A DNA stretch of 29,769 nucleotides, taken from Candidatus Scatomorpha stercoravium (GTDB lineage Bacteria > Bacillota > Clostridia > Oscillospirales > Oscillospiraceae). The notes beneath the pieces were generated by a model. The model searched no databases. It had not been told where the DNA came from and saw nothing but the letters and a program-made list of their open reading frames with translations. The stretch covers positions 1-29,769 of the forward strand of contig DVKN01000007.1 in assembly GCA_018716005.1 (NCBI GenBank). Reading direction: 5' to 3'. Numbering within the stretch: position 1 is the stretch's first letter; every line of letters begins with the position of its first letter. Both the position numbers and the translations under genes were made by a program. This document shows positions 4,407-29,560 of this stretch, piece by piece.

Positions 4407-4430
4407 CGCAATCCCTCCTTCAATACCGTG

Positions 4431-4459: not shown

Positions 4460-4462
4460 GTA

Positions 4463-4550
4463 AGCACGAACATTATTTCGCTTATCTGAGGCGAGTATAG
4501 CACGAACTTTTTTGCGTGTCAAGAGGCGGTGCGGAATTTCCGTTCGTGCT
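4463..4550. promoter_or_regulatory. Three copies of 9-bp AGCACGAAC (operator-like)
   Basis: AGCACGAAC at 4463-4471 and 4499-4507, and its reverse complement GTTCGTGCT at 4542-4550. Confidence 0.7.
4494..4522 (-). promoter_or_regulatory. Near-consensus sigma70 promoter driving the small ORF, facing the + strand promoter
   Basis: Minus strand TTGACA (4522-4517), 17 bp, TATACT (4499-4494). Confidence 0.85.
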
Positions 4551-4568
4551 CATGGAAAGGGGCGCACT

Positions 4569-4979: not shown

Positions 4980-5485
4980 ACGCGAGGCAGTTATCCGAGG
5001 TCGGCGAGCGGCTCGTGCGCCGCTGCGGCACGCGCGACCCCTTTGAGATGGCCCGCCAGCTCGGCGTGGAGGTGCTCTTCTGCCCGGATTTCGGCAGCAT
5101 GAAGGGTATGTACCGGGTGATACGGCGCAACCGCTTCATCTTCCTCAACGACGGCCTGACGCCGCAGATGCAGCGCATAGTCTGCGCGCACGAGCTGGGC
5201 CACGACCAGCTCCACCGGAATCTCGCCAAGGACGGCGCGCTGCGTGAGTTCATGCTCTACGACATGAGCACGAGGCCCGAGTACGAGGCCAACATCGTCG
5301 CCGCCGAGATCCTGCTCGACAGCGGCGAGGTGCTGGACTACGTCTACCGCTGCGGCTACACGACCGAGCAGATAGCCCGCGCCATGGAGACAGACATAAA
5401 CCTCGTCGCGCTAAAAGTGGCGCACCTTATTGAGGCGGGCTTTGCCCTGACCCCGGGCGAGTATAGGGGCGACTTTTTGAAGTAG
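4976..5485 (+). CDS. ImmA/IrrE-family zinc metallopeptidase
   Basis: CAHELGH (HExxH) and downstream EYEAN motif; ATGA overlap with XRE stop. Confidence 0.9.
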   Translation: MNARQLSEVGERLVRRCGTRDPFEMARQLGVEVLFCPDFGSMKGMYRVIRRNRFIFLNDGLTPQMQRIVCAHELGHDQLHRNLAKDGALREFMLYDMSTRPEYEANIVAAEILLDSGEVLDYVYRCGYTTEQIARAMETDINLVALKVAHLIEAGFALTPGEYRGDFLK

Positions 5486-5524
5486 GAAAGGAACCGGCCC
5501 GGGCGCGGAGCGCGTTGAGACAGC

Positions 5525-5559
5525 GCAAAATCCCGGAACCGAGCATTCCGGGATTTTGC
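5525..5559. terminator. Bidirectional terminator between ImmA and the convergent AAA gene
   Basis: 14-bp perfect stem GCAAAATCCCGGAA/TTCCGGGATTTTGC, 7-nt loop. Confidence 0.75.
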
Positions 5560-12795: not shown

Positions 12796-12859
12796 GCCCG
12801 GACGGCGCTTTGGTTACATGGAAGCAATTAAAACAAACCGTTCAAAGGAGAAATGAAAA

Positions 12860-14773: not shown

Positions 14774-14829
14774 TCCGAGAGAGACAATAAACCCGACCGA
14801 GAGAAAAAAGATTAGGAGACAAGCTTACA

Positions 14830-16746
14830 ATGCACTTTGAAAACCTCTTTTCCCCCATCAAGCTCCGCGGCCTCGAACTCAAGAACCGCGTGCTTATGCC
14901 GGGCATGGACACCAAGTTCGCGCACGACCACATAGGCGATGAGGTCATCGCCTATCACGTCGCGCGCGTCAAGGGCGGCTGCGCGCTCAATATGTTCGAG
15001 TGCACCGCCGTGCACATCACCTCGCGCTCGAGGATGAACTTCGGCCTCTACACCGAGGAGCAGCGCGACGAGTTCAAAAAGCTCACCGACGCCGTCCACG
15101 CGGCCGGCGGCAGGATAGGCGTGCAGCTGCTGCACTGCGGCTTCGTCTACCGCCCCTTCCTCTATGAGGGCGTCCGCTGCCTGGACGTCAACAACATGAC
15201 CAAGGAGGACATAGACGAGATAGTCGCCGCCTTCGGCCGCAGCACCGCCCTCGCCGTCGAGGCCGGCTTCGACACCGTCGAATTCCACGCCGCGCACACC
15301 TACCTCGCCCACGAGTTCCTCACCGCGGCCATCAACCGCCGCACGGACGAGTACGGCGGCAGCCTCGAAAACCGCGCGCGCTTCGCCCTCGAGTGCATCC
15401 GCGAGATGCGCCGCAATATGCCCGAGGATATGCCGCTGCTCATGCGCGTCGACGTCCACGACGACTACCTCGAGAACGGCCTCACCGTCGACGACGTCGC
15501 CCAGTTCGTGAACTGGGCCGGCGAGGCCGGCGTCGACCTTGCGGATGTGTCCCGCGGCAACATCCTCTCCTTCGCCAACGTTTACGAGGTGCCGCCCATC
15601 AACCTGCCGAAGGGCCTCAACATAGACCTCATCGGCGAGCTCAAGAGCAAGGTCAAGGACGTCGCCATAGCCACCGTCGGCCGCATAGTCGAGCCCGAGA
15701 TGGCCGAGCGCGCCCTCGCCGAGGGCAAGGCCGACATGGTCGCCATCGGCCGCGCGCAGATAGCCGACCCCGACTGGTGCGTCAAGGCCATGCGCGGCGA
15801 GAGCGACAAGATAGTCAAGTGCATCGGCTGCCTCCAGGGCTGCTACGACGCCGTGACCCTGCCCGACCGCGCCCACATAACCTGCCTGCGCAACCCCATG
15901 TGCGGCCGCGAGAGCAAGCCCGTCCCCACCGCCAAGCGCAGCCTGCGCGTCATGGTCATCGGCGGCGGCATGGGCGGCATGGTGACCGCGCGCTACCTCA
16001 AGCAGTTCGGCCACGAGCCCGAGATTTACGAAATGACCAACGCCCTCGGCGGCCAGTTCGTCCTCGCCGGCAAGGCCCCGCACAAGGACGAGATTGGCGA
16101 GGCCGACCTCTGGGAGCAGCACGCCGTGCTCAGCCTGGGCATCCCCGTCCACCTGAACACCACCGTCACCCCCGAGCTCATCGCCCGCGTCAAGCCCGAC
16201 GCCGTCATCTGCGCCACCGGCGCGACCCCGCTCATCCCGCGCATCCCCGGCTACGACCTCCCGCACGTCTGCAACGCGCACGAGGTCCTCGCCGGCGATA
16301 TAACCCCGTCCGGCAACGTCGTCATCATCGGCGGCGCCTCCGTCGGCGTCGAGGTCGCCGAGTACCTCGCCGAGCGCGGCGCCCACGTGAGCGTCATCGA
16401 GATGCGCAACAAGCCCGGCATCGGCTACGGCCCGCTGCGCCGCAAGTTCGTCAAGAAGAACCTGTTCGAGTACGGCATCAACTTCATCGGCGAGGCCAAG
16501 TGCGAGGAGATACGCCCCGACAGCGTGGTCTACACGAAGCACGAGAAGACCGCCAGCATCCCCTGCGACGCCGCCGTCATCTCCGTCGGCTCCCGCAGCC
16601 GCGACACCACCGACATCGTCTCCGCCTGCAAAAAGCTCGGCATATTCTGCCGCGTGATAGGCGACGCGAAGGCCGTCGGCAACGCGCTCGACGCCACCAC
16701 CGCCGGTATGGACGCAATCTACGAGCTTCTCGCCGAGAACGCCTGA
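14830..16746 (+). CDS. Second BaiCD-like flavoenzyme (tandem paralog)
   Basis: Same architecture and strong similarity to the upstream BaiCD (RGLELKNRVLMPGMDTK, SRGNILSFANVYEVPP, CIGCLQGCYDAV) but divergent substrate loops. Confidence 0.88.
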   Translation: MHFENLFSPIKLRGLELKNRVLMPGMDTKFAHDHIGDEVIAYHVARVKGGCALNMFECTAVHITSRSRMNFGLYTEEQRDEFKKLTDAVHAAGGRIGVQLLHCGFVYRPFLYEGVRCLDVNNMTKEDIDEIVAAFGRSTALAVEAGFDTVEFHAAHTYLAHEFLTAAINRRTDEYGGSLENRARFALECIREMRRNMPEDMPLLMRVDVHDDYLENGLTVDDVAQFVNWAGEAGVDLADVSRGNILSFANVYEVPPINLPKGLNIDLIGELKSKVKDVAIATVGRIVEPEMAERALAEGKADMVAIGRAQIADPDWCVKAMRGESDKIVKCIGCLQGCYDAVTLPDRAHITCLRNPMCGRESKPVPTAKRSLRVMVIGGGMGGMVTARYLKQFGHEPEIYEMTNALGGQFVLAGKAPHKDEIGEADLWEQHAVLSLGIPVHLNTTVTPELIARVKPDAVICATGATPLIPRIPGYDLPHVCNAHEVLAGDITPSGNVVIIGGASVGVEVAEYLAERGAHVSVIEMRNKPGIGYGPLRRKFVKKNLFEYGINFIGEAKCEEIRPDSVVYTKHEKTASIPCDAAVISVGSRSRDTTDIVSACKKLGIFCRVIGDAKAVGNALDATTAGMDAIYELLAENA

Positions 16747-16770
16747 GTTCCCGGCCTGACATTGAAAAAA

Positions 16771-16795
16771 CGCCGCGCCGGGCCCCGGCGCGGCG
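16771..16795. promoter_or_regulatory. Intergenic hairpin upstream of baiE
   Basis: CGCCGCGCCGG/CCGGCGCGGCG 11-bp stem; no downstream U-tract on + strand. Confidence 0.6.
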
Positions 16796-16830
16796 CGAAA
16801 AACCGCGAACTATTGTTAGGAGGTACAGTT

Positions 16831-17352
16831 ATGACGATTGAAGAAAGGCTCGAGGCTCTCGAGAAGGAGACCCAGAAGCTCCGAGACGTTATCGAGATTA
16901 TGAACCTGAAGGGCAAGTATTTCCGCTGCCTCGACAGCAAGGACTGGGACGGCCTCGAGACTACGTTCTCCCCCAACGTCGCCACTTCCTACTCCAACGG
17001 CAAGCTCTCCTTCCACGGCCCGAAGGAGGTCACTAACTACTTCAAGCAGACCATGCCCGCCGAGATGATAAGCATGCACATGGGCCACACCCCCGAGATT
17101 ACCGTCAACGACGACGGCACCGCCGTCGGCCGCTGGTACCTCCAGGACAACCTCATCTTCACCGAGGGCAGCCCCTACGCCGGCGTGGGCATCCAGGGCG
17201 GCGCCTTCTACACCGACAAGTACGAGAAGATAGACGGCCAGTGGCTCATAGTCGAGACCGGCTACGTCCGCATCTACGAGGAGAGCTTCAAGCGCCCCCA
17301 CACCCGCATGACCGCCAATATGCACGCCAAGAAGGAAGTAAAGGCCGAATAA
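16831..17352 (+). CDS. baiE: Bile acid 7alpha-dehydratase
   Basis: MTIEERLEALEKE..., LKGKYFRCLD, ISMHMGHTPEI, GGAFYTDKYEKIDGQW; residues equivalent to BaiE Y30, D35, H83, D106, R146 present; start moved to ATG 16831 (AGGAGG). Confidence 0.96.
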   Translation: MTIEERLEALEKETQKLRDVIEIMNLKGKYFRCLDSKDWDGLETTFSPNVATSYSNGKLSFHGPKEVTNYFKQTMPAEMISMHMGHTPEITVNDDGTAVGRWYLQDNLIFTEGSPYAGVGIQGGAFYTDKYEKIDGQWLIVETGYVRIYEESFKRPHTRMTANMHAKKEVKAE

Positions 17353-17400
17353 GGCGGAAATCTGAGCCCAATCCCGAGAATAAGAAAGGAAAGATATATC

Positions 17401-18153
17401 ATGGAACTCGTCAAAGGCAAAGTAGCTTTCATAACCGGCGGCACCCGCGGCATCGGCTTCGCGGCCGCTAAGAAGTTCATCGAGAACGGCGCCCACGTCG
17501 CCATCGCCGGCCACTGCCAGGAGACCGTCGACGCCGCCCTCGCCAAGCTCAAGGAGCTCTACCCGGACGTCGAGGTCCTCGGCCTGCATCCCACCCTGAC
17601 CAGCCGCCAGGAGATGCTCGACGCCGTCGGCCAGGTCGTCGCCAAGTGGGGCCGCATCGACGTCATGATTAACAACGCCGGCGTGACCCACAGCACCGTG
17701 TTCAGCAAGATTCAGGAGGGCGAGTTCGAGCATATGTTCGACGTCAACGTCGAGGGCGTGTACAACGGCGCCTGGGCCGCCTACCAGTACATGAAGGCCA
17801 ACAACGCCGGCGTCATCATCAACACCGCCTCCGTCACCGGCATCTTCGGCTCCACCTCCGGCGTCGGCTACCCCGCCAGCAAGGCCGCGGTCGTCGGCTT
17901 CACCCATGAGCTCGGCCGCGAGCTGGTCCGCCGCAACATCCGCGTCGTCGCCGTCGCCCCCGGCGTTGTCAACACCGACATGACCAACGCCAACATGGAC
18001 CCCGTCATCAAGGAGCAGTACCTCAAGTACCTGCCCATGAAGCGTATGCTCGAGCCCGAGGAGATTGCCAACGTCTATCTCTTCCTCGCCAGCGACCTCG
18101 CCAGCGGCATCACCGCCACCACCGTCAGCGTTGACGGCGCCTACAGGCCGTAA
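17401..18153 (+). CDS. baiA: 3alpha-hydroxy bile acid-CoA dehydrogenase (SDR)
   Basis: ITGGTRGIGFAAAK, GVGYPASK and C-terminus LPMKRMLEPEEIANVYLFLASDLASGITATTVSVDGAYRP matching recalled BaiA. Confidence 0.96.
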   Translation: MELVKGKVAFITGGTRGIGFAAAKKFIENGAHVAIAGHCQETVDAALAKLKELYPDVEVLGLHPTLTSRQEMLDAVGQVVAKWGRIDVMINNAGVTHSTVFSKIQEGEFEHMFDVNVEGVYNGAWAAYQYMKANNAGVIINTASVTGIFGSTSGVGYPASKAAVVGFTHELGRELVRRNIRVVAVAPGVVNTDMTNANMDPVIKEQYLKYLPMKRMLEPEEIANVYLFLASDLASGITATTVSVDGAYRP

Positions 18154-18156
18154 GCT

Positions 18157-18918
18157 ATGCTGCTGAAAGACAAGGTCGCCATAATAACCGGCGCGAACTC
18201 GGGCATAGGCCATGAGTGCGCCCTGACATTTATAGCCGAGGGGGCCATAGTCGCCGGCGTCGACATCAACACCGGCAGCATGGCCGGCCTCGCCGAAGCC
18301 GCCGAGAAATACGGCACCCGCTTCGAGGCCTTCCAGTGCGACGTGCGCAGCGAGGAGTCCGTCATGGGCGTAGTCGACGCCGTGGCCGAGCGCTTCGGCG
18401 GACGCATCGACATCATGCTCAACGTCGCCGGCATCACCGTCGACTCCCCCATCACGCGCACGGACAAGAGCGTCTTCGACCGCGTCATAGACGTCAACGC
18501 CGGCGGCACCTTCAACTTCTGCAAGCACGTGGCGCGGTACATGAAGCGCCAGCGCTCCGGCTCCATCGTGAACACGAGCTCCGTCACCGCCCAGTTCGGC
18601 ACCCAGATGGGCACGCCGTACAGCGCGAGCAAGGCCGCCATACTCGGCATCACCCGCTCGCTCGCCATGGAGCTCGCGCCCTGGAACGTCCGCGTGAACG
18701 CGGTCGCCCCCGGCGTCGTGAACACGGAGATGGTCTCCAACCTCAACGAGCAGGAGCGCGAGAGCTGCGCGAGGAGCATCCCCCTCGCCAGGCTCGGCGA
18801 GCCCCGCGACATCGCGAACGCCATGCTCTTCCTCGCGAGCGACATGGCCTCGTACATAACCGGCAGCACGCTGAACGTCGACGGCGGATACCGCCCCGCC
18901 TTCGTGCCGCTGCACTGA
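18157..18918 (+). CDS. Additional BaiA-like SDR oxidoreductase (candidate hydroxysteroid dehydrogenase)
   Basis: TGANSGIG, acidic D in GVDIN (NAD-type), YSASK, VAPGVVNTEM and VDGGYRP resembling BaiA. Confidence 0.85.
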   Translation: MLLKDKVAIITGANSGIGHECALTFIAEGAIVAGVDINTGSMAGLAEAAEKYGTRFEAFQCDVRSEESVMGVVDAVAERFGGRIDIMLNVAGITVDSPITRTDKSVFDRVIDVNAGGTFNFCKHVARYMKRQRSGSIVNTSSVTAQFGTQMGTPYSASKAAILGITRSLAMELAPWNVRVNAVAPGVVNTEMVSNLNEQERESCARSIPLARLGEPRDIANAMLFLASDMASYITGSTLNVDGGYRPAFVPLH

Positions 18919-18955
18919 ACCACCTCAAGCTATACCCGAAAGGAGCAGAAAACCA

Positions 18956-20257
18956 ATGGCTGGTCTTAAAGATTTCCCCAATAACGGCGCCCTCCACGGG
19001 CTAAAGATACTCGACAGCGGCTCCAACATAGCCGGCCCCTTCGCGGGCGGCCTGCTGGCTGAGGCCGGCGCCACCGTCATCCACTTCGAGGCCCCCAAGA
19101 AGCCCGACAACCAGCGCGGCTGGTACGGCTATCCCCAGAACCACCGCAACCAGCTCTCCATGGTCGCCGACATCAAGACCGAAGAGGGCCGCGAGATATT
19201 CCTGAAGCTCATCAAGTGGGCCGACATCTGGGTCGAGTCCTCCAAGGGCGGCCAGTACGACCGCCTGGGCCTGAGCGACGAGTTTATCTGGACCATCAAC
19301 CCCAAGCTCGCCATCTGCCACGTCTCCGGCTACGGCCAGAGCGGCGTGCCCGAGTACGTCACCAAGGCGAGCTACGACGCCGCGGGCCAGGCCTTCTCCG
19401 GCTATATGTCCCTCAACGGCATCGACTACTCCCTCAAGACCAACCCCTACCTGAGCGACTACGTCTGCGGCCTCACCACCTGCTGGAGCATGCTCGCCTG
19501 CTACGTCAGCACCCAGCTCACCGGCAAGGGCGAGAGCGTCGACGTCGCCCAGTACGAGGCCCTGGCCCGCATCACCGACGGCCGCTTCATGCAGTACCTC
19601 ACCGACGGCGTCAAGATGCCGCGCACCGGCAACAAGGACGCCCAGGCCGCGAGCTTCAGCTTCTACACCTGCAAGGACGGCGGCGTCATCTTCATCGGCA
19701 TGACCGGCGCCGAGGTCTGCAAGCGCGGCTACCCGATTATCGGCCTGCCCGTGCCCGGCACCGGCGACCCCGACTTCCCCGAGGGCTTCACCGGCTGGAT
19801 GATTAACTCCCCCGTCGGCCAGAGGATAGAGCGCGCCGTCGAGAACTACGTCTCCCAGCACACCGTCGACGAGGTCGAGGCCGAGATGCTCGCCCATCAG
19901 ATCCCCTGCCAGAAGGTCTACGAGCTCGAGGACTGCGCCAAGGATCCCCAGTGGCAGGCCCGCGAGACCCTCACCGAGTGGGACGACCCCATGTTCGGCC
20001 ACGTCAAGGGCCTCGGCCTCCTGAGCAAGTTCAAGAACAACCCGAGCCAGATCTGGCGCGGCGCCCCGCTCTTCGGCATGGACAACCGCGACATCATGCG
20101 CGACCTCGGCTACACCGACGAGCAGATTCAGGACTACTACGACCGCGGCATCGTCGGCGAGTTCGACCTTGAGACCACTATCAAGCGCTACCGCCTGCGC
20201 GAGGTCATCCCCCATATGCGCCCCGACTGGAAGGGCCTCCCCGAAGACAAGAAATAA
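18956..20257 (+). CDS. baiF: Bile acid CoA-transferase (family III)
   Basis: MAGLKDFP..GAL.GLKILDSGSNIAGP, KKPDNQRGWYGYPQNHRNQLSMVADIK, GLPVPGTGDPDFPEGFTGW match recalled BaiF. Confidence 0.96.
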   Translation: MAGLKDFPNNGALHGLKILDSGSNIAGPFAGGLLAEAGATVIHFEAPKKPDNQRGWYGYPQNHRNQLSMVADIKTEEGREIFLKLIKWADIWVESSKGGQYDRLGLSDEFIWTINPKLAICHVSGYGQSGVPEYVTKASYDAAGQAFSGYMSLNGIDYSLKTNPYLSDYVCGLTTCWSMLACYVSTQLTGKGESVDVAQYEALARITDGRFMQYLTDGVKMPRTGNKDAQAASFSFYTCKDGGVIFIGMTGAEVCKRGYPIIGLPVPGTGDPDFPEGFTGWMINSPVGQRIERAVENYVSQHTVDEVEAEMLAHQIPCQKVYELEDCAKDPQWQARETLTEWDDPMFGHVKGLGLLSKFKNNPSQIWRGAPLFGMDNRDIMRDLGYTDEQIQDYYDRGIVGEFDLETTIKRYRLREVIPHMRPDWKGLPEDKK

Positions 20258-20267
20258 GAATCTATTC

Positions 20268-20291
20268 GGGCCCGGCCCGACGGCCGGGCCC
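20268..20291. promoter_or_regulatory. Intergenic hairpin after baiF
   Basis: GGGCCCGGCC/GGCCGGGCCC 10-bp stem, CGAC loop, no U-tract. Confidence 0.6.
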
Positions 20292-20310
20292 GGCCTCCGG
20301 AGGGTTTGAT

Positions 20311-21108
20311 ATGAAAAAACTGGAGAATAAGGTGGCGCTCGTCACCGCGAGCACGCGCGGCATCGGCTATGCCATAGCGGAGACCTTCGCCCGCGAGGGC
20401 GCGACGGTCTATATGGCCTGCCGCAACCTTGAAGCCGCCAACGAAAAGGCCGCGGCCCTCAACGCGGAGGGCTGCTGCGTGAAGACCGTGTACTTCGAGG
20501 CTCACGACAAGCAGAGCATGAAGGACATGATAAAGACCGCCGTCGAAAACGAGGGCCGGCTGGACATACTCGTCAACAACTTCGGCGGCACGAGCCCGAA
20601 GGACGACCTGCCGTTCCAGTACACGAAATACGACAAGTTCGCGAACTATATTGACATGCACCTCTCCAGCGTGTTCATAGCCTCCCAGGAGGCCATACGC
20701 CTCGCGATGGAGAAGCAGAAGAGCGGCTGCATAATCAATATCGGCTCCGTCGCCGGCATCACGCCCGATACGAGCCAGGTCGCCTACGGCACCAGCAAGG
20801 CCGCCATTATCCACCTGAGCAAGATGATAGCCGTCCACGCCGCGAAGGACAACATCACCTGCAACGTCGTGTGCCCCGGCATGACCGCGACCGAGGCCGT
20901 CATGAACAACCTGACGCCCGAGTTCATGCAGTTCTTCCTCAAGCACACGCCCATCGCGCGCATGGCCACGCCCCAGGAGATGGCCGACGCCGCGCTCTAC
21001 TTCGCCACCGCGCCCTTCACCACGGGCCAGGTGCTGGCCGTCCACGGCGGCTTCGGCGTGCCGAGCCCCGTATACGGCGACATGCTGCTCATGACCAACA
21101 AGCGCTAA
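20311..21108 (+). CDS. hdhA: 7alpha-hydroxysteroid dehydrogenase, NADP(H)-type SDR
   Basis: LVTASTRGIG, MACRN (basic residue, NADP-type), LVNNFG, PDTSQVAYGTSKAAI, PGMTATEAV.NNLT..F..FFLKHTP match recalled clostridial 7alpha-HSDH. Confidence 0.85.
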   Translation: MKKLENKVALVTASTRGIGYAIAETFAREGATVYMACRNLEAANEKAAALNAEGCCVKTVYFEAHDKQSMKDMIKTAVENEGRLDILVNNFGGTSPKDDLPFQYTKYDKFANYIDMHLSSVFIASQEAIRLAMEKQKSGCIINIGSVAGITPDTSQVAYGTSKAAIIHLSKMIAVHAAKDNITCNVVCPGMTATEAVMNNLTPEFMQFFLKHTPIARMATPQEMADAALYFATAPFTTGQVLAVHGGFGVPSPVYGDMLLMTNKR

Positions 21109-21119
21109 AGGAGACAGAT

Positions 21120-21629
21120 ATGGAACGTCAACTCCAGGAACTCATAGAGAAGGAAGCCATCCGCGAGCAGATATACACCTACTGCCGCGCGCTTGACCGC
21201 ATAGACAACGAGCTGGGCTACACTGTCTTCGCCGAGGACGCCAAGGTCGACTACGGCCCCACCTATAAGGGCGACGGCCGCGGCTTCATCGACATGATGC
21301 TCAATATGCACCGCGGGATGGTCGCCACCCACCACATGATGACGAACATCCTGATAAAGTTCAATGACGACATGACCCGCGCCGCGAGCGAGACCTATAT
21401 GTACGCCGCCTGCAAGTACAAGAACAAGGCCGGCGAGGCCAGCTTCACCGTCGAGGCCCGCTGCCGCGACATCGACAAGTGGGAGAAGCGCGACGGCAAG
21501 TGGGTCATCACCGAGCGCGTCGTCGCCGGCGACAACACCTTTATGCTCACGCCGAGGTACTTCGACGACTACAACAACGGCCGCGACACCGTCAAGGACC
21601 CGTCCTACACCTTCTTCGAGGAAGTGTGA
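21120..21629 (+). CDS. SnoaL/NTF2-like protein (dehydratase/isomerase fold), additional to BaiE and BaiI
   Basis: LIEKEAIREQIYTYCRALD...THHMMTN...DKWEKRDGKWVITER SnoaL_4 pattern; start moved to ATG 21120 (AAAGGAG). Confidence 0.85.
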   Translation: MERQLQELIEKEAIREQIYTYCRALDRIDNELGYTVFAEDAKVDYGPTYKGDGRGFIDMMLNMHRGMVATHHMMTNILIKFNDDMTRAASETYMYAACKYKNKAGEASFTVEARCRDIDKWEKRDGKWVITERVVAGDNTFMLTPRYFDDYNNGRDTVKDPSYTFFEEV

Positions 21630-21657
21630 GCGCGGCTCGCATTGAGGAGGCCGTGCA

Positions 21658-23469
21658 GTGAAGCTGAATCCAGGTACATATGAGGGCTGCGCGCGCGGAT
21701 ACGGCGGCAGGCTCTATGTGAGCGCCGAGGTCTCCGAGGGGAGCATCCTCAGCGTAAAGATAACCAAGCACCGCGAATACCGCGGCATAGCCTGGGGGCT
21801 GAACACCACGCCCATCGAGAGCTTCCCCGGGCTCATAGTCAAATACCAGAGCCTCAACATTCCCCCGGTAACGGGCGCGGACGTCACCTGCGAGGCCATC
21901 CTCGGCGCGGTTTCCGCCGCCCTCGCGGCCGCGGGCGCGTCCGAGGAGGACATAGCCGCGCTCCGCTCCGCCCCCGGCCCCGTGCCGCCCGAGTATGAGG
22001 ACGAGGTCCGCCATGTCGACGTCGTGGTCTGCGGCGCGGGCGCGGGCGGCCTCGCCGCCGCCATCGAGGTCAAGGAGGCCGGCGGCGACGTCGTGATTGT
22101 GGAGAAGCAGGGCGTGACCGGCGGCGCGACCGCGCGCTCCGGCGGCAAGCTCCTCGGCGCGGGCACCGAATGGCAGAAGCGCCAGGGCATCTACGACAGC
22201 GAGAACATGGTCTACGACTACCTCATGGAGGTGGGCGACCGGCAGGGCAAATTCATGGACGCCGGGAAGACCCGCTATCTCGTCGACAACCTGAACTCCA
22301 CCATAGAATGGCTCAGCTCCATCGAGGCCACCGTGAAGGGCGATGAGGAAGAGATACTGGCCATGCCGTATCAGGAGCTCTCCCGCCCGCGCAGGAAGGA
22401 CGGCGCGCTCAAGACGAGCTACCACGTCCTCGACGTCGAGGCCATACACAAGAGCCTCCAGCCCTGGAGGGTGCACAATTCCCCCGGAGGCGGCGGCCAG
22501 ACGAACGGCCAGGGCGGCGAGATTTCCACCCCGCTCACGCTCTACTATGAGAACGACATCGGCGGCGAGATAATCTACAACACCGCCATGCAGGAGCTGC
22601 TCACCGACGAATACGGCGCGGTGACCGGCGTCGTATGCCGCCGCGCGAACGGCGCGAAGCTGACGCTCTACGCCCGCCGCGGCGTGATAATCGCCACCGG
22701 CGGCTACGCGCGGAACAAGGAGATGTGCTCCCGCTACCCCGTGGCGCACTACTTCAGCAACGTCCCGTGCGGGAACGTCGGCGAGGGCCTCACGGCCGCC
22801 GAGAGGATAGGCGCGCTCAACTACGAGCACCCGGCCGTGCAGGTGGTCTACACCTCGCTGAGCTGCGGCGTCGGCATAAACGACGAGAGCGGCCTCATAG
22901 TGAACAGCCGCGGCGAGCGCGTCGTAAACGAGTGGACCTATCAGTACACGGTCTCGGACGCCATCGCACGCTCCGGCAGCAGCTGCGGCTGGTACATAAC
23001 CAGCGGCGACGAGCCCTATCCGACCGTGCGCTACGGCTTCGCCCAGGCTGTCGAGGGCAAGAGCCGCGACTACGCCGCCGACAGCATAGAGGAGCTGGCC
23101 GTGAAGATAAAGGCCGACCCCGCCGTGCTGAAGGCCACATACGAGCGCTACTGCGAGCTCGTGGAAAAGGGCGCCGACGAGGACTTCGGGAAGCCCGCGA
23201 AGTTCCTCCACCCCATAAAGGGGCCGAAGTTCGCCGCGCTCAGGCTCCACCCCTGCGTGACCGTCACCTTCGGCGGGCTGGACACCGACCTCTCGGCGCG
23301 CGTAATACGCCCCGACGGGAGCGTCATACCCCGCCTGTACGCGGCCGGCGAGGTCGCCGGTACGGGAATGTACGGCACGCAGTACCCCACCTGCGGCACC
23401 TCCATAGGCAGCGCGCTCTTCTACGGCCGCATAGCCGGACGCGCCGTCATGGATAAGAAGATGCTTTGA
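21658..23469 (+). CDS. FMN-bind + FAD_binding_2 (flavocytochrome/fumarate-reductase-like) oxidoreductase, BaiJ/BaiP-like
   Basis: N-terminal PGTYEG.ARGYGG.L.V...V FMN-bind domain; DVVVCGAGAGGLAAAIE, EKQGVTGGATARSGG, TFGGL, IPRLYAAGEVAG; GTG start after GAGGAGG; no signal peptide. Confidence 0.8.
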   Translation: MKLNPGTYEGCARGYGGRLYVSAEVSEGSILSVKITKHREYRGIAWGLNTTPIESFPGLIVKYQSLNIPPVTGADVTCEAILGAVSAALAAAGASEEDIAALRSAPGPVPPEYEDEVRHVDVVVCGAGAGGLAAAIEVKEAGGDVVIVEKQGVTGGATARSGGKLLGAGTEWQKRQGIYDSENMVYDYLMEVGDRQGKFMDAGKTRYLVDNLNSTIEWLSSIEATVKGDEEEILAMPYQELSRPRRKDGALKTSYHVLDVEAIHKSLQPWRVHNSPGGGGQTNGQGGEISTPLTLYYENDIGGEIIYNTAMQELLTDEYGAVTGVVCRRANGAKLTLYARRGVIIATGGYARNKEMCSRYPVAHYFSNVPCGNVGEGLTAAERIGALNYEHPAVQVVYTSLSCGVGINDESGLIVNSRGERVVNEWTYQYTVSDAIARSGSSCGWYITSGDEPYPTVRYGFAQAVEGKSRDYAADSIEELAVKIKADPAVLKATYERYCELVEKGADEDFGKPAKFLHPIKGPKFAALRLHPCVTVTFGGLDTDLSARVIRPDGSVIPRLYAAGEVAGTGMYGTQYPTCGTSIGSALFYGRIAGRAVMDKKML

Positions 23470-23542
23470 GGCCGTTGCGGAGAAACGGCCGGCCGGCGGC
23501 AGCGCCGGATGAGTAAAATGATTTGAGAGGACAACTGACACC

Positions 23543-25528
23543 ATGGACATGAAAGACTCTAAGCTGTTTTCCCCGCTCAAGGTGGGCTCCCTGACGCTGC
23601 GCAACCGCGTCGGCATGGCCCCCATGAGCATGGACTACGAGGCGAAGGACGGCACCGTGCCCAAGCGCCTCGCGGACATCTTCGTCCGCCGCGCCGAGGG
23701 CGGCACCGGCTATGTCATGATAGACGCCGTCACGATTGACCGCAAGTACCAGTACATAGGCAAGACCACCTGCCTCGACTCCGACGACCTGGTCCCGCAG
23801 TTCCGCGAGTTCGCCCAGCGCGTCGCCGCCACCGGCAGCACCCTCGTGCCCCAGATTATCCACCCCGGCCCGGAGAGCATCTGCGGCTTCCGCGGCATCC
23901 CGCCCCTGGGCCCGAGCGTCAACACCAACGCCAACTGCCACGTCTCCCGCGCGATGACCATCGACGAGATACACGAGGTCGTCAAGCAGTTCGGCCAGGC
24001 CGCCAGGAGGGTGGAGGAGGCCGGCTGCGGCGCCATCGGCCTGCACTGCGCCCACGCCTACATGATGCCCGGCGCCTTCCTGAGCCCGCTGCGCAACAAG
24101 CGCATGGACGAGTACGGCGGCTGCATCGACAACCGCGCCCGCTTCATCCTCGAGGTCATAGCCGAGGTACGCGCGAACGTCAGCCCCGACTTCCCGATTT
24201 TCCTGCGCGTCTCCGGCAGCGAGCGCGTCGAGGGCGGCAACAGCCTCGAGGAGATGCTCTACCTCGCGCCCAAGTTTGAGGCGGCCGGCGTCAACCTCAT
24301 CGAGGTCTCCGGCGGCACCCAGTACGAGGGCCTCGAGAACATTATCCCCAGCCACGGCAAGCACATAGGCATGAACGTCTATGAGGCCAGCGAGATAAAG
24401 AAGGTCGTCAACATCCCCGTCTACGCCGTCGGTAAGATAAACGACATCCGCTACGCCGCCGACATAGTCGAGCGCGGCCTCGTGGACGGCGTGAGCATGG
24501 GCCGCCCCCTGCTCGCCGACCCCGACCTCTGCAACAAGGCCTACGAGAACCGCTTCGACGACATCACCCCCTGCGGAAGCTGCGGCGGCAGCTGCATCAC
24601 CCGCACCGCGGAGCGTCCCCAGTGCCGCTGCCATATCAACCCGCGCGTCGGCCATGAGTACGACTATCCCGACAACCCGACCGACAAGCCGAAGAAGACC
24701 CTCATCATCGGCGCGGGCCCCGGCGGCATGTACGCCGCCGTCACCGCCGCCGAGCGCGGCCACGACGTCACCGTCTGGGAGGCCGACGACAAGATAGGCG
24801 GCCAGCTCAACCTCGCCGTCACCAGCCCCGGCAAGCAGGAGATGACGAAGTGGCTCGTCCACCTCAACTACCGCGCGAAGAAGGCCGGCGTCAAGTTCGA
24901 GTTCGGCAGGGAGGCCACCGTCGAGGCCGTCCGCGAGTTCAATCCCGACGCGGTTATCGTCGCCACCGGCGCGAAGCCGCTCATCCCGCCCATCAAGGGC
25001 ACGCAGGAGTATCCCGTCCGCACCGCTCACGACTACCTCAGGGGCAAGTTCGTCATCCCGAAGGGCCGCGTGTGCATCCTCGGCGGCGGCGAAGTCGCCT
25101 GCGAGACGGCCGAGACGATACTCGCCAACGCCCGTCCGACCGCGTTCACCCGCGGCTTCGACGCGAGCATCGGCGACGTCGAGGTCACCATCATAGAGAT
25201 GCTCCCCCAGATCCTCACCGGCGTCTGCATGCCCAACAGGGCGCCCCTTATGCGCACGCTGAAGGCCAACGGGGTTGACATCAACGTAAATACCAAGGTA
25301 CTCGAGGTCACCGACCACGACGTAAAGGTCCAGAGGAAGGACGGCACCGAGGAGTGGCTCCGCGGCTTCGACTACATCATCTTCGGCCTCGGCGCCCGCA
25401 ATTACGATCCCCTCAGCGAAGAACTCAAGGCCTTTGTCCCCGAGGTGCACGTTATCGGCGACGCCGTCAAGGCCCGCCAGAGCAGCGACGCCATGTGGGA
25501 AGGCTTCGAGGTCGCATATAACCTGTAA
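23543..25528 (+). CDS. baiH: BaiH NADH:flavin oxidoreductase (OYE + 4Fe-4S)
   Basis: MDMK.S.LFSPL..GSLTL.NRVGMAPMSMDYEA.DGTVPKRLAD, GGTQYEGLE, EMTKWLVHLNYRAKKAGVKFEF match recalled BaiH. Confidence 0.96.
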   Translation: MDMKDSKLFSPLKVGSLTLRNRVGMAPMSMDYEAKDGTVPKRLADIFVRRAEGGTGYVMIDAVTIDRKYQYIGKTTCLDSDDLVPQFREFAQRVAATGSTLVPQIIHPGPESICGFRGIPPLGPSVNTNANCHVSRAMTIDEIHEVVKQFGQAARRVEEAGCGAIGLHCAHAYMMPGAFLSPLRNKRMDEYGGCIDNRARFILEVIAEVRANVSPDFPIFLRVSGSERVEGGNSLEEMLYLAPKFEAAGVNLIEVSGGTQYEGLENIIPSHGKHIGMNVYEASEIKKVVNIPVYAVGKINDIRYAADIVERGLVDGVSMGRPLLADPDLCNKAYENRFDDITPCGSCGGSCITRTAERPQCRCHINPRVGHEYDYPDNPTDKPKKTLIIGAGPGGMYAAVTAAERGHDVTVWEADDKIGGQLNLAVTSPGKQEMTKWLVHLNYRAKKAGVKFEFGREATVEAVREFNPDAVIVATGAKPLIPPIKGTQEYPVRTAHDYLRGKFVIPKGRVCILGGGEVACETAETILANARPTAFTRGFDASIGDVEVTIIEMLPQILTGVCMPNRAPLMRTLKANGVDINVNTKVLEVTDHDVKVQRKDGTEEWLRGFDYIIFGLGARNYDPLSEELKAFVPEVHVIGDAVKARQSSDAMWEGFEVAYNL

Positions 25529-25591
25529 CCCAGCGCAGCCGCTCCGGGGCGGCAAACGCCCCGGAGGACACCACCAAGGAGGAGAAAAAGC

Positions 25592-27013
25592 ATGGATGCT
25601 ACAGTAAACAAAAACTACATGAAGGGCTTTGTGCCCTTCGCCATGGCCGCGGCCCTGGTCAGCCTCGCCGGCGGCTTCACCGCGTCTATCCCCAACAACA
25701 TAGTCAGCGCCTGGGGCCTGGATTCCACCTGGGTCACCTGGATCACCCTCTCGATGAGCATGGGCATGGCCGCCTGCGCGCCTGTCCTCGGCAAGCTCGG
25801 CGACATCTTCGGCCGCCGCGGCGCCGCCCTCGTCGGCATAGCCCTCATGGCCATCGGCGAGCTCGCCATCGGCCTCGCGCCCGACGGGGCCATCTGGATG
25901 GTCCTCGCCGCCAGGTTCGTCGTCGGCGTCGGCGCGGCCGCCATTTCCCCGACCGTCATCGCCTACATCACCAGCGAGTTCCCGCCCGTGAAGATGGGCA
26001 ACGGCTTCGCCGTCTACATGGCGCTCTCCAGCGGCATGGTCATCTTTGGACCCACCGTCGGCGGCCTTATCTTCCAGGCCACCCAGAACTGGCGCCTCAT
26101 CCTCTACATCTGCGCCGGCCTCGCCGCTCTCTGCTTCGTCATCTGCCTCGTCACCATGAAGAAGGAGACCGGCCCCAGGAAGGGCCTCGCCGGCTTCGAC
26201 ATCTTCGGCGGCATCTTCATCATCCTCGGCTTCTCCCTGGTGCTCTGCGTGCCGACCGTCGGCCAGGGCGCGGGCGGCTGGCTCGGCACCGCCAGCCTCG
26301 CTGTTATTGGCTGCACCGTCGTTGCGCTCATAGTCCTCTTCCTCGCCGAGCGCAAGGCCAAGAACCCCATCCTCAACGGCAAGTTCATGGCCCGCAAGGA
26401 GTTCATCCTCCCCGTCGTCGTCCTCTTCCTCACCCAGGGCCTCATGCAGGCCTGCATGACGAACACCATCCGCTTCTCGATGATGTTCGACCCGACCAGC
26501 TCCGTCGCCAGCTTCGCGACCTCCATCATGTACGTCGGCATGACCATCGGCAACATCGCCGTGGCCCCGCTCTCCAACAAGCACGAGCCGCGCTACATCT
26601 CCGTCCTCGCGCTGCTCTTCTGCCTCGTCGGCGCCGCCATCCAGCTGCTCTTCACGGCTGAGTCCGGCTTCGTCCTGTTCGCCTCCAGCCTGTTCTTCAT
26701 CGGCCTGGGCCTCGGCGGCAACGGCACCATCTTCATGAAGGTCGCCCTCTCCGGCCTCGACCCGCAGATCGCGGGCGCCGGCAGCGGCACCTACACCGTG
26801 TTCCGCGATATGTCCGCCCCCTTCGGCGTCGCGGTGTTCAGCTCCATGTTCGTCGGCGGCTATGCCGCCGCCCAGCAGGCGGGCGACGCCGCCGCCCTCG
26901 GCGCGGCCGTCGTCAGCTCCATGCACAACGTCGCCTGGGTCCAGATGGCCTGCGTCGTCGTCGGCATGGTCGTCTGCCTGATGCTCCCCAAGATTTACAG
27001 CAAGAAGGCCTGA
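25592..27013 (+). CDS. baiG: Bile acid MFS transporter
   Basis: 14-TM-type MFS; NY.KGFVPFA, GKLGDIFGRR, KNPILNGKFMARKEF.LPV, GLGGNGTIFMKVALSGL, FRDMSAPFGVAVF match recalled BaiG. Confidence 0.93.
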   Translation: MDATVNKNYMKGFVPFAMAAALVSLAGGFTASIPNNIVSAWGLDSTWVTWITLSMSMGMAACAPVLGKLGDIFGRRGAALVGIALMAIGELAIGLAPDGAIWMVLAARFVVGVGAAAISPTVIAYITSEFPPVKMGNGFAVYMALSSGMVIFGPTVGGLIFQATQNWRLILYICAGLAALCFVICLVTMKKETGPRKGLAGFDIFGGIFIILGFSLVLCVPTVGQGAGGWLGTASLAVIGCTVVALIVLFLAERKAKNPILNGKFMARKEFILPVVVLFLTQGLMQACMTNTIRFSMMFDPTSSVASFATSIMYVGMTIGNIAVAPLSNKHEPRYISVLALLFCLVGAAIQLLFTAESGFVLFASSLFFIGLGLGGNGTIFMKVALSGLDPQIAGAGSGTYTVFRDMSAPFGVAVFSSMFVGGYAAAQQAGDAAALGAAVVSSMHNVAWVQMACVVVGMVVCLMLPKIYSKKA

Positions 27014-27025
27014 GACATTCAAACC

Positions 27026-27051
27026 GGCCCCCTGCCCTAAAGCAGGGGGCC
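27026..27051. promoter_or_regulatory. Intergenic hairpin after baiG
   Basis: GGCCCCCTGC/GCAGGGGGCC 10-bp stem, 6-nt loop, no U-tract. Confidence 0.6.
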
Positions 27052-27071
27052 TATTGAGAAAGGAGCAACCC

Positions 27072-27578
27072 TTGACTATTCCTGCCGATAAGGAAATCAC
27101 CGAACTCGTACGCGAGATACTCACCGAGGCCGGCAAGGGCTATACCCCCGAGCAGCTAGCCGAAATCCCCAACATCCTCGCCACCAAGTACAAGTACTGG
27201 TGGTGCATAGACATGCAGATGTGGGACCTGCTCCCCGAGGTCTATACCGAGCCCTTCGAGGCCTATTCCAACGGCCGCCTGGTGCCCAACAAGTGCATTC
27301 AGGACCAGGTCGACCGCGCCGCCGTCGTGTGCAACGACTCGATGGTGCCGACCCACATGGGCCACAACCCCATCGTGCAGTTCACCGGCGAGCGCTCCTG
27401 CCGCCTGCTCACCCGCCTGAACGACTACCACACCTATAAGGACGACGGCTCCACCTACGAGGGCTGGGCCCTTTACGTGGACGACATGGTGAAGTGCGAC
27501 GACGGCGTCTGGCGCATAAAGACCCTGCGCCTCACCTACCGCAAGATACTGGGCAAACTTCGCACCCTGGGAGTTTAA
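27072..27578 (+). CDS. baiI: SnoaL/NTF2-like protein, probable BaiI
   Basis: KYKYWWCID...PTHMGHNP...LYVDD...DGVWRI; BaiE-like fold; located beside baiG/baiH; TTG start 27072 after AAAGGAG; name from fold plus synteny. Confidence 0.65.
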   Translation: MTIPADKEITELVREILTEAGKGYTPEQLAEIPNILATKYKYWWCIDMQMWDLLPEVYTEPFEAYSNGRLVPNKCIQDQVDRAAVVCNDSMVPTHMGHNPIVQFTGERSCRLLTRLNDYHTYKDDGSTYEGWALYVDDMVKCDDGVWRIKTLRLTYRKILGKLRTLGV

Positions 27579-29560
27579 TGATGAACGACACCTGCTTCAA
27601 GCTGCTCGAGCCGGGCAAGATAGGCCGCCTCGAGCTCAAAAACCGCATAATCCTCGCCCCCATGGGCACCATCGTGGGCAACCTCGGCCCGCGCGGCGTC
27701 GAATACTTCGTCGAGCGCGCCAGGGGCGGCGCGGCCATGCTCATGTGCAACATAGTCGCGTCCGACTACTTCGAGGACCCCAGCCACTCCATTTTCCTCA
27801 ACGACCATAGCACGCCGTATTTTAAGGAGCTGTGCGAGCGCGCCCACGCCCTGGGCAGCAAGGTCTGCGCCCAGCTGCACCCCGGCAACGGCCGCATCGG
27901 CGGGCCCAGCCTGCGCTACCCCGTGCCGATAAGCGCGAGCGCCTGCCCCTGGATGCATGCCCCGCAGGTCATGTGCCACGAGCTGAGCGTCGACGAGATA
28001 CACAAGCTCGAGGACGACTACCGCGCCGCCGCGCAGCGCGCCGTCGGCGCCGGCTGCGACGCCATCGAGATTCACGCCTACGGCGGCTACCTCACCGACC
28101 AGTTCCTCACCGCGCGCTGGAATAAGCGCACGGACGAGTACGGCGGGGACCTGGACGGCCGCATGCGCTTCCTCAGGGAGCTCATCGCCATCTCCAAGGA
28201 GGTCGGCGGAGCGGACTTCCCGGTCATCGTCAAGTACTGCCCCGACCACTACCTGCCCGTCGAAGAGGGCTACCGCGGCATAGAGGAGGGCCTCGAGCTC
28301 ACGCGCAAGCTGCTCGAGTGCGGCGTGGACGCGCTCCACGTCGACGCCGGCTGCCATGACGACTGGTACCTCGCCATGCCGCCCGACTACATCCAGGAGA
28401 TGACCCTCCAGGCCCGCAGCGCCAAGGCCGTCAGGGAGATAAGCACCGTGCCCGTCCTGACCCACGGCCGCTACTCCAACGTCGAGAAGGCCGAGAGCGT
28501 CCTGCGCCACGACGTCTGCGACTTCACGGTCATAGGCCGCGGCCTCCTCGCCGACCCCGAGCTGCCCAACAAGCTCGCCGAGGGCCGCGCCGAGGACATC
28601 CGCCCCTGCATCTCCTGCAACGAGGGCTGCATAGCCCGCTCCTACGCGCTAAAGAACGCCACCTGCGCCGTGAACCCTGTCTGCGGCCATGAGATAGACG
28701 GCGGCATCCCCAAGGCGAAGACGCCCCTGCGCGTCCTCGTCGTCGGCGCCGGCCCCGGCGGCTGCACCGCCGCGCTCTACGCGAAGGCCGCCGGCCACGA
28801 GGTCGAGCTCTGGGAGAAGAGCGCCTCCATCGGCGGCAACGCCCTCGCGGCGAGCCAGCCCTACTTCAAGGCCGATATGCACGCCCTCATGACCTGGTAC
28901 AAGCTCCAGCTCGCCAAGGCCGGCGTGCCCGTCCGCTACTGCCGCGAGGCCAACCACGACAACGCGGCCGCCTGGAAGCCCGACAGGATAATCTGGGCCG
29001 CCGGCGGCGCGCCGATACTGCCCGCGAGCATCCCGGGCCTCGACGGCTACAGCGTCTACTCCGCCACCGACGCGCTCAGGAACCTCGTCGACGTCGGCGA
29101 GCGCATAGTCATGGTCGGCGGCGGCATGGTCGGCATCGAGGCCGCGCTGCACTTCGACCGCATGGGCAAGCAGGTCACCGTCATCGAGATGGCGAAGAAG
29201 ATGCTGCCACAGCCGATGTTCAAGATGAACGGCGACCTGCTCAAGAAGATGATGCGCGAGAGCGGCATCACCTTCCGCACCAGCACCAAGCTCGTGTCCG
29301 TCGACAGCACCCGCACCCACACCGCCGTGACGGTCGAGGGTTCCGAGGGTGAGGACACCATAGAGTGCGACACCGTCCTCATGGCCCTGGGCTTCGCCCC
29401 CACGGCCAAGGCCGGCGAGGCCCTCGCCGACATCTGCCCCGTCATAGCGATAGGCGACGCGGTGGAGGCCAGGAAGATTCTCTACGCCACGACCGACGCT
29501 TACAACGCCGTCCTCGGGCTTGAGAATCCGGAAACCATAGACTTCAGCGACAAAGGCTGA
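27578..29560 (+). CDS. Fourth OYE/BaiCD-BaiH-family NADH:flavin oxidoreductase (4Fe-4S)
   Basis: LKNRIILAPM, NKRTDEYGG, CISCNEGC...CAVNP, VVGAGPGG, VGGGMVG; TAATG coupling to upstream stop; start moved from 27494. Confidence 0.88.
   Translation: MMNDTCFKLLEPGKIGRLELKNRIILAPMGTIVGNLGPRGVEYFVERARGGAAMLMCNIVASDYFEDPSHSIFLNDHSTPYFKELCERAHALGSKVCAQLHPGNGRIGGPSLRYPVPISASACPWMHAPQVMCHELSVDEIHKLEDDYRAAAQRAVGAGCDAIEIHAYGGYLTDQFLTARWNKRTDEYGGDLDGRMRFLRELIAISKEVGGADFPVIVKYCPDHYLPVEEGYRGIEEGLELTRKLLECGVDALHVDAGCHDDWYLAMPPDYIQEMTLQARSAKAVREISTVPVLTHGRYSNVEKAESVLRHDVCDFTVIGRGLLADPELPNKLAEGRAEDIRPCISCNEGCIARSYALKNATCAVNPVCGHEIDGGIPKAKTPLRVLVVGAGPGGCTAALYAKAAGHEVELWEKSASIGGNALAASQPYFKADMHALMTWYKLQLAKAGVPVRYCREANHDNAAAWKPDRIIWAAGGAPILPASIPGLDGYSVYSATDALRNLVDVGERIVMVGGGMVGIEAALHFDRMGKQVTVIEMAKKMLPQPMFKMNGDLLKKMMRESGITFRTSTKLVSVDSTRTHTAVTVEGSEGEDTIECDTVLMALGFAPTAKAGEALADICPVIAIGDAVEARKILYATTDAYNAVLGLENPETIDFSDKG

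Follow-up and report, generated by a model that had tools for sequence, protein, structure and literature searches.

BaiJ of Clostridium scindens VPI 12708 (ACF20978, with orthologues in C. hylemonae and Dorea sp. D27) and BaiP of C. scindens ATCC 35704 (563 amino acids, also referred to as the 'BaiJ' of that strain, HDCHBGLK_03451, with an orthologue in Proteocatella sphenisci) convert the 3-oxo-Δ4 forms of lithocholic acid (LCA) and deoxycholic acid (DCA) to 3-oxo-allo products in Escherichia coli (PMC9645264), and this reduction has been confirmed in vitro (PMC10936602). Here we describe a gene of this type in the window, which is the whole stretch of 29,769 nucleotides that was analysed from Candidatus Scatomorpha stercoravium (contig DVKN01000007.1). 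Judging from its sequence, the gene is an orthologue of baiJ from the VPI 12708-type clade. We consider it quite probable that it codes for a cytoplasmic 3-oxo-Δ4 bile acid 5α-reductase that depends on flavin adenine dinucleotide (FAD) and carries no covalent flavin mononucleotide (FMN). The gene and its parts are the following.

21658..23469, + strand: open reading frame of the baiJ orthologue, GTG start, 603 amino acids; predicted cytoplasmic 3-oxo-Δ4 bile acid 5α-reductase
21644..21650, + strand: ribosome-binding site GAGGAGG, read from the sequence, 7 nt before the GTG and inside the 28-nt spacer that follows the SnoaL gene
21697..21924, + strand: FMN_bind domain (Pfam, residues 14-89, 30.3 bits for a cut-off of 22)
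22018..23406, + strand: FAD_binding_2 catalytic domain (Pfam, residues 121-583, 193.6 bits)
21862..21882, + strand: degenerate flavinylation motif P69-P-V-T-G-A-D75 (canonical form D-x-x-[ST]-G-A-[TS])
22321..22413, + strand: 31-residue insertion, about residues 222-252, seen as BLASTP gaps against C. scindens BaiJ and BaiP

The preliminary description of this DNA had proposed a reductase of the BaiJ/BaiP type, and this is borne out. The protein has the two-domain architecture, FMN_bind followed by FAD_binding_2, that is typical of BaiJ (about 570-610 amino acids). In a set of 5.8 billion proteins searched for homologues, its closest named relative is a cluster of 573-residue proteins (P0122) which includes BaiJ of C. 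hylemonae and of C. scindens VPI 12708, with 67% identity. The cluster of C. scindens BaiP (P0285, 563 amino acids), whose accessions include the protein of Lachnospiraceae 5_1_57FAA that had already been placed in the BaiP cluster (PMC9645264), shows 41% identity to the window protein. None of the NCBIfam models reaches its cut-off on the 603-residue protein.

A tree had been suggested as the way to check this assignment. Two maximum-likelihood trees (IQ-TREE, LG+C20, quick search, SH-aLRT support), one of them with 62 rows, place the window protein inside a BaiJ clade with a support of 100 (27 rows in one tree, 23 in the 62-row tree), which also holds C. scindens VPI 12708, C. hylemonae, Dorea sp. 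D27, a Peptacetobacter and many metagenome-assembled genomes (MAGs) of Oscillospiraceae. BaiP, the Proteocatella sphenisci protein, an Oscillospiraceae MAG (locus L060) and the cluster representative P0108 form a separate clade, also with a support of 100, and the window protein is outside it. The assignment is thus to BaiJ specifically. The nearest neighbours in the trees are Candidatus Scatomorpha pullicola (87%) and an uncultured Oscillospiraceae bacterium, and the nearest relatives come from the chicken gut. The presence of Oscillospiraceae MAGs in the BaiJ cluster has been reported before (PMC9645264, PMC10936602); the enzyme clade is a known one, and the operon arrangement described below is a variant.

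The reading frame is open over 607 codons, only four of which lie upstream of the GTG, and with its good ribosome-binding site it is a real, intact gene. The AlphaFold2 model has a mean pLDDT of 94.8 and a pTM of 0.93, with a well-ordered N-terminal domain. The 31-residue insertion is a feature of the Oscillospiraceae BaiJ proteins that were compared with BaiJ and BaiP of C. scindens, neither of which has it, and it is modelled confidently as a short strand-helix-strand excursion. Where the clade is conserved to 93% or more, the protein departs at three positions (A138V, L301I and G456T), and many members have more departures. Pseudogenisation was considered and ruled out, the deviations being so few and conservative.

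By homology with BaiJ/BaiP and with the fold of the Δ4-(5α)-dehydrogenases of 3-ketosteroids, a hydride would pass from N5 of the FAD to C5 of the 3-oxo-Δ4 bile acid, on the alpha face, while C4 would receive a proton, probably from the set of Tyr and Gln residues that replaces the arginines of fumarate reductases. The 3-oxo group could then be reduced by the BaiA-type short-chain dehydrogenases/reductases (SDRs) of the same operon. The sequences themselves show the domain architecture, the clade, the state of the motif, the lack of a signal peptide, the surroundings in the operon and the selection on the domain; the substrate, the 5α stereochemistry, the co-transcription with the other bai genes and the role of the FMN_bind domain are all inferred.

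The membership in the BaiJ clade bears on which double bond is reduced. The two C. scindens enzymes differ in that BaiP (the BaiJ of ATCC 35704) additionally reduces 3-oxo-Δ4,6-LCA, which the VPI 12708 enzyme cannot do (PMC10936602). As a matter of fact, BaiJ(ATCC 35704) catalyzes the reduction of C6=C7 (3-oxo-Δ4,6 to 3-oxo-Δ4), the first reductive step of 7-dehydroxylation, and replaces BaiH in vitro (PMC10936602). If this were the main activity of the window protein, whose gene is indeed midway in the main operon, the enzyme would belong to the core of the pathway rather than to a side branch. We think this unlikely, for the protein is in the VPI 12708-type clade, and a BaiH-like gene of the old yellow enzyme (OYE) type lies immediately downstream of baiJ.

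Several observations weigh against a 3-oxo-Δ4 5α-reductase, or at least against a simple version of it. An identity of 67% to BaiJ leaves room for a different substrate range, and the difference between the C. scindens enzymes just mentioned shows that such ranges do vary. In vitro, the 3-oxo-allo-LCA made by BaiJ(ATCC)/BaiP comes mainly from the unconjugated intermediate, while the intermediate bound to coenzyme A (CoA) goes to the 5β product via BaiCD (PMC10936602), and one laboratory could detect no allo-bile acids in C. scindens cultures (PMC10936602), so that the physiological output is uncertain. The usual partners baiK and baiL are absent from the locus and from the assembly, which is 78% complete. 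The window lineage has the 31-residue insertion and a terminal branch of 0.14-0.15, that is, three to four times longer than the branches of its two nearest relatives (0.03-0.05; loci L001 and L002). Last, co-transcription is deduced from gene spacing and a simple terminator scan.

Regarding the catalytic domain, the nearest solved structures are the urocanate reductase UrdA (6t85/6t86), the flavocytochrome c3 (Fcc3) fumarate reductases of Shewanella, the Rhodococcus jostii 3-ketosteroid Δ4-(5α)-dehydrogenase (4at0) and Δ1-KstD, all with 22-27% identity. UrdA is the best by sequence (6t85, E 1.4e-39), and the Foldseek matches of the AlphaFold2 model are 6t86, 1qjd and 4at0. Since close homologues of the window protein are labelled 'urocanate reductase' and its best solved relative is UrdA, it could be thought of as a urocanate, fumarate or other enoate reductase that neighbours the bai genes by chance. 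The active site argues strongly to the contrary. In HMMER alignments to UrdA and flavocytochrome c, the catalytic Arg402 of Fcc3 (the Arg of T-R-D) corresponds to Q429, His504 (the first His of H-H-T-M-G-G) to T535, Arg544/545 (the Arg of G-A-N-R-L-G-G) to Y576, and His365 (the His of A-H-P-T) to V397. Bertsova et al. (bioRxiv 10.1101/2022.01.20.477176) describe the carboxylate-binding Motif I (Arg402, His504 and Arg544) and the proton relay as conserved features of the enzymes that reduce fumarate, methacrylate and urocanate. Furthermore, the solved enoate reductases are only 26-27% identical, versus 67% for BaiJ, the signal peptide and the flavinylation site are both missing, and the adjacency to bai genes is conserved in many genomes. 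An enoate reductase is therefore extremely improbable. Active-site residues and phylogeny rule out the fumarate or urocanate reductase identity and make the label 'urocanate reductase' untenable; the gene can be annotated as baiJ instead.

The residues Y428-Q429-Y430 and Y576 are invariant, or nearly so, in the BaiJ clade. They are also found in the nearest lipoprotein relatives, so that the change in the substrate pocket is older than the move to the cytoplasm. These flavinylated, exported relatives (44-49% identity; loci L051-L080, for example from Holdemania, Hungatella, Faecalibacterium and Clostridium) lack the residues that bind the carboxylates of fumarate or urocanate. Going by these residues, what they reduce outside the cytoplasm may be enones without a carboxylate, possibly steroids or bile acids.

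The resemblance to the R. jostii enzyme raises the question of the direction of the reaction. That enzyme has the same FAD_binding_2 fold (Foldseek E 5e-35, TM score 0.77 on the target, 27% identity; sequence E 2e-34) and acts on C4-C5 of 3-oxo steroids with 5α stereochemistry; unlike the window protein, it has no FMN_bind domain and is an aerobic catabolic dehydrogenase that works in the opposite physiological direction. It is conceivable that the window enzyme is chiefly an oxidative 3-oxo-5α-steroid Δ4-dehydrogenase, admitting allo primary bile acids to 7-dehydroxylation, a step that is beyond the 5β-specific BaiCD. Birds have more allo-bile acids than mammals, and the chicken-gut origin of the nearest relatives would suit this idea. 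The reactions of BaiJ(ATCC) are reversible in vitro (PMC10936602), and bacterial 7-dehydroxylation of allocholic acid is cited in a review (PMC10382948, its reference 77). However, at C4=C5 only the reductive direction has been demonstrated for BaiJ, and the position of the gene in the operon says nothing about direction. A chiefly oxidative function seems to us improbable, although it could coexist with the reductive one.

As for the N-terminal domain, according to the preliminary description the flavinylation motif reads VTGAD, with Asp in place of the acceptor Thr, and the protein has no export signal, which would imply a cytoplasmic enzyme without the covalent FMN that ApbE attaches. All of this stands up. 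Residues 69-77 are P-P-V-T-G-A-D-V-T (nt 21862-21888): Asp occupies residue 75, where ApbE would need an acceptor, and Pro replaces the recognition Asp at residue 69. FMN_bind starts at residue 14 and only four codons separate the upstream stop from the start, so that no signal peptide fits; the maximal hydropathy over 12 residues is 0.86, versus 2.2-3.2 in lipoprotein relatives. The loss of the acceptor Thr and of the recognition Asp means that no phosphoester-linked FMN is expected at the usual site.

These features are not peculiar to the window copy. They are common to every protein of the BaiJ and BaiP clades that was examined, including the two characterised enzymes: BaiJ of C. scindens VPI 12708 lacks a signal peptide and reads GAD around the acceptor, exactly like the window protein, and BaiP, also cytoplasmic, has GAE. 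In an alignment of 111 full-length matches, the sequence at the acceptor is G-A-D or G-A-E throughout the BaiJ clade (P-L-V-N-G-A-D-L-T in C. scindens BaiJ), cytoplasmic relatives with 45-50% identity have G-A-E, except for two with G-x-K, and distant relatives (588-700 amino acids) have D-x-[IV]-[ST]-[GS]-A-T. All 44 BaiJ/BaiP-like sequences have Asp or Glu at residue 75 and no N-terminal hydrophobic segment, whereas a lipoprotein signal peptide (a hydrophobic stretch followed by a Cys lipobox) is found in each of the 25 relatives that bear the Thr. The two groups share the scaffold of the domain column by column (H38, E40, G43, T50, P52, E54, P57, Q64-S65-L66, G73-A74, T77, I81, A84 and G93) and switch cleanly at just two motif positions, Asp69 to Pro and Thr75 to Asp/Glu. 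A loss of Thr specific to the window copy was thus ruled out, the loss being clade-wide in alignment and tree. On the evidence of these sequences, the replacement of Thr by Asp/Glu and the absence of a signal peptide define the BaiJ/BaiP family.

One change in the 62-row tree is enough to account for the acceptor residue and one for the signal peptide, and the two traits coincide perfectly (41 proteins without Thr and without signal peptide, 21 with both). A wider sample gives a similar picture: an HMMER search of 1.84 billion cluster representatives returned 13,620 matches at E ≤ 0.001, and the best 150 of these (50%-identity clusters) contain 191 FMN_bind domains. In this sample 174 of the 191 domains have Thr or Ser together with a signal-peptide-like N-terminus, while the 11 domains without Thr/Ser, which belong to the nearest relatives of the query, all lack such an N-terminus. 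The tree is unrooted, but the great majority of the wider family bears the Thr and is exported, so that a cytoplasmic protein without acceptor is most simply read as the derived state, with a single origin. The FMN_bind domain would then have been inherited from extracytoplasmic lipoprotein reductases flavinylated by ApbE, and the signal peptide, the recognition Asp and the acceptor Thr would have been lost in the common ancestor of BaiJ and BaiP.

Among described reductases, extracytoplasmic ApbE-flavinylated enzymes, such as Shewanella UrdA, the fumarate reductase of Listeria and many Firmicute lipoproteins, have the same domain order and fold as the window protein, and the nearest lipoprotein relatives (44-49% identity) have the FMN_bind scaffold in common with it. 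They carry a lipoprotein signal and D-x-x-[ST]-G-A-T, and their covalent FMN relays electrons from the membrane (PMC8238504), whereas the window protein has neither the signal nor the motif. The NADH:fumarate reductase of Klebsiella (FRD) and the NADH:acrylate reductase of Vibrio harveyi (ARD) are cytoplasmic and combine FMN_bind with FAD_binding_2, like the window protein, but they have an additional OYE-like domain that oxidises NADH and have kept DVISGAT; BaiJ and BaiP lack both the OYE domain and the acceptor Thr. In these enzymes the covalent FMN on D-V-I-S-G-A-T is indispensable for the activity driven by NADH, and a cytoplasmic ApbE is required in E. coli (bioRxiv 10.1101/2022.01.20.477176).

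BaiJ and BaiP are active in ordinary E. coli BL21 (PMC9645264), which is consistent with an enzyme that does not need covalent FMN; the absence of both ApbE motif and export signal would explain why they function in plain E. coli. It is important to note that free FAD and FMN were supplied by Meibom et al. both in the purification and in the assay, which limits what that work says on flavin stoichiometry. In the case of NqrC, the apo-protein binds free FMN very weakly in the absence of the covalent bond (PMC4348036). We found no earlier mention of BaiJ together with ApbE in the literature that was searched. Beyond that literature, the pattern presents BaiJ/BaiP as a cytoplasmic offshoot of ApbE-flavinylated lipoprotein reductases, one which lost the export signal and both motif residues together but kept the domain, and this raises, at the level of the family, the question of what FMN_bind does and what the electron donor is.

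Selection on the domain is informative in this respect. Pairwise Nei-Gojobori estimates within the BaiJ clade give a dN/dS of 0.08-0.26 for the FMN_bind part (codons 1-95) versus 0.07-0.24 for the FAD domain, that is, slightly higher and clearly purifying. Since purifying selection persists, FMN_bind is most likely of continued use to the enzyme, whether it binds a flavin non-covalently or docks the electron donor. A vestigial domain was rejected on the grounds of dN/dS and of the conservation of the scaffold.

A more radical view would be that the whole gene is a decaying or regulatory remnant, its FMN_bind domain vestigial and the enzyme inactive after the loss of baiK and baiL. The longer terminal branch, the faster evolution of FMN_bind in the window lineage (dN 0.155 versus 0.038) and the shortened copy of baiJ in locus L030 could be taken as signs of decay. 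On the contrary, dN/dS in the window lineage is 0.15-0.26 across all three regions, the reading frame is intact and preceded by a good ribosome-binding site, the deviations from the clade consensus are few and conservative and the structure is modelled with confidence. We regard a remnant as very unlikely.

The same assembly does encode flavinylation machinery, with two ApbE genes, and FMN_bind or RnfD-type sites occur in three further proteins (DAITGAT, DVVAGAT, DFVASAT and DSITAAT). BaiJ is, as far as its sequence tells, the only FMN_bind protein of the genome whose canonical site is closed to modification. The ApbE-related loci are on contig C51 (about 1606-5557) and at C119:6668-7486. One of the ApbE genes is close to those of a protein with tandem FMN_bind domains (DAITGAT, DVVAGAT) and of an RnfD-like protein (DFVASAT), and this locus resembles an Rnf-type or extracytoplasmic electron-transfer locus.

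Regarding the genetic context, the gene had been described as embedded in the main bai operon, and it is indeed found within a same-strand run of 14 genes. The run and the two neighbours of baiJ are the following.

11269..29560, + strand: run of 14 bai genes, with baiB and baiCD above the NCBIfam cut-offs; baiJ is the tenth gene
21120..21629, + strand: third SnoaL_4 gene, upstream neighbour of baiJ, with its stop at 21629
23543..25528, + strand: OYE/Fe-S flavoenzyme (BaiH-like, OYE3), downstream neighbour, which starts 73 nt after the baiJ stop

The order is baiB, baiCD, a baiCD paralogue, a baiE-like SnoaL gene, a baiA-like SDR, a second SDR, a baiF-like CoA transferase, an SDR resembling 7α-hydroxysteroid dehydrogenase (7α-HSDH), the third SnoaL gene, baiJ, the BaiH-like OYE3, a transporter of the major facilitator superfamily (MFS; baiG-like), a baiI-like SnoaL gene and OYE4. 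BaiB scores 761 bits (cut-off 650) and BaiCD 847 (cut-off 825). The spacers are mostly 3-73 nt, the last two genes overlap, and the G+C content is about 63%. A simple scan found no terminator-like hairpin on the + strand from baiB to the end of the window. The baiJ gene would thus be transcribed within one long bai operon, and BaiJ is probably made together with the 7-dehydroxylation enzymes.

This arrangement differs from that of C. scindens VPI 12708, to which the window gene is similar in architecture, clade and association with bai genes: there, baiJ belongs to a separate baiJKL operon beside baiA1, whereas the window copy is inside the main operon, has no baiK/baiL partner and codes for 31 extra residues. 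The preliminary description had predicted from the embedding that allo-bile acids are formed upon co-induction, which is reasonable but soft. Induction by bile acids has already been reported for baiP and for baiJKL of C. hylemonae (PMC9645264, PMC10936602), while baiJ of VPI 12708 is reportedly not induced, so that co-induction is not a new prediction; and since the allo branch competes poorly in vitro once the intermediates are bound to CoA, co-expression is no guarantee of allo products. A chicken-gut lineage of Oscillospiraceae joins the organisms with the genetic potential to make allo-DCA and allo-LCA, compounds which the literature links to colorectal cancer and to longevity cohorts.

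The Bai proteins of the window were mapped onto 80 loci from GTDB species representatives. Most baiJ genes of Oscillospiraceae form a three-gene cassette together with an SDR of the baiL type and a CoA transferase of the baiK type (in the order L-K-J or J-L-K) and lack core bai genes within 10 kb, and in Lachnospiraceae the order is J-K-L beside baiA, as published. In Ca. Scatomorpha pullicola and its relative (L001, L002), L-K-J is divergent from baiB-baiCD-baiCD2 and located about 3 kb upstream. In Ca. Limivicinus-type loci (L018, L019 and L023), baiJ is inside a CAG:103-type bai cluster, between baiH/SDR and regulator genes. An Oscillospiraceae MAG (L044:1-14700) has a divergent bai-like operon (baiA, SDR, baiE-like, baiB, baiF, MFS) in which two BaiJ/P-like paralogues (39% and 45% identical to the window protein) flank a 7α-HSDH-like gene. 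The embedding of baiJ among bai genes recurs in Oscillospiraceae and is not unique to the window. A search of the literature for earlier accounts of such embedding gave nothing more specific than the general remark that genes of the BaiJ clade occur in Oscillospiraceae MAGs. A lone baiJ directly between SnoaL3 and the BaiH-like gene is seen only in the window among the 80 loci.

The locus whose flanking genes are closest to the window, L030, shares the operon but reads SnoaL3-baiL-baiK-baiJ-OYE3 at this point: 2.39 kb with the baiL-like and baiK-like genes (L030:2868-5256) stand in place of the 28-nt spacer of the window. Its baiJ is short of about 230 nt near the 3' end (L030:6639-6911), which leaves an open reading frame of 527 amino acids; it could be a pseudogene or an assembly artefact. 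The window baiJ has diverged more than its neighbours, with 87% protein identity to the copies of L030 and L001, versus 97% for baiF, 93% for OYE3 and 92% for SnoaL3 in the comparison with L030.

Neither baiK nor baiL was found beside the window baiJ or elsewhere in the assembly (1.97 Mb, 291 contigs, 78% complete), in which the best matches to the baiK-like and baiL-like proteins of L030 are BaiF (47%) and other SDRs (32%); nor does this 78%-complete assembly contain a second copy of baiJ or baiP. The spacers of the window and of L030 are unrelated, and the junction sequences do not discriminate loss from gain. The loss of baiK and baiL in the window lineage is the simpler reading, since the J-K-L association spans both families.

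A composite scenario can be imagined, in which BaiJ/BaiP, descended from extracytoplasmic respiratory reductases flavinylated by ApbE, moved to the cytoplasm in a single step and kept FMN_bind for non-covalent flavin binding or donor docking, an acidic residue having replaced the Thr that bears the phospho-FMN, and, in addition, the window enzyme, now in the core operon without baiK and baiL, runs backwards as a Δ4-dehydrogenase for allo primary bile acids. As a whole it is rather unlikely; if true, a reverse-running BaiJ would let allo primary bile acids be 7-dehydroxylated in a bacterium of the bird gut.

The third SnoaL gene deserves a comment. In Proteocatella sphenisci, a homologue with 67% identity (L065:9375-9866) immediately precedes the gene of the BaiP clade, and the same SnoaL gene precedes baiJ in the window and baiL-baiK-baiJ in L030. 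This pairing across bacterial families hints at a functional link between SnoaL and BaiJ/P.

Last, we note that two loci assigned to Bacteroidaceae, L059 (a Bacteroides thetaiotaomicron MAG) and L013 (Bacteroidaceae bacterium), carry genes nearly identical to reductases of the Hungatella and Oscillospiraceae types; these labels are probably due to binning errors in public MAGs.

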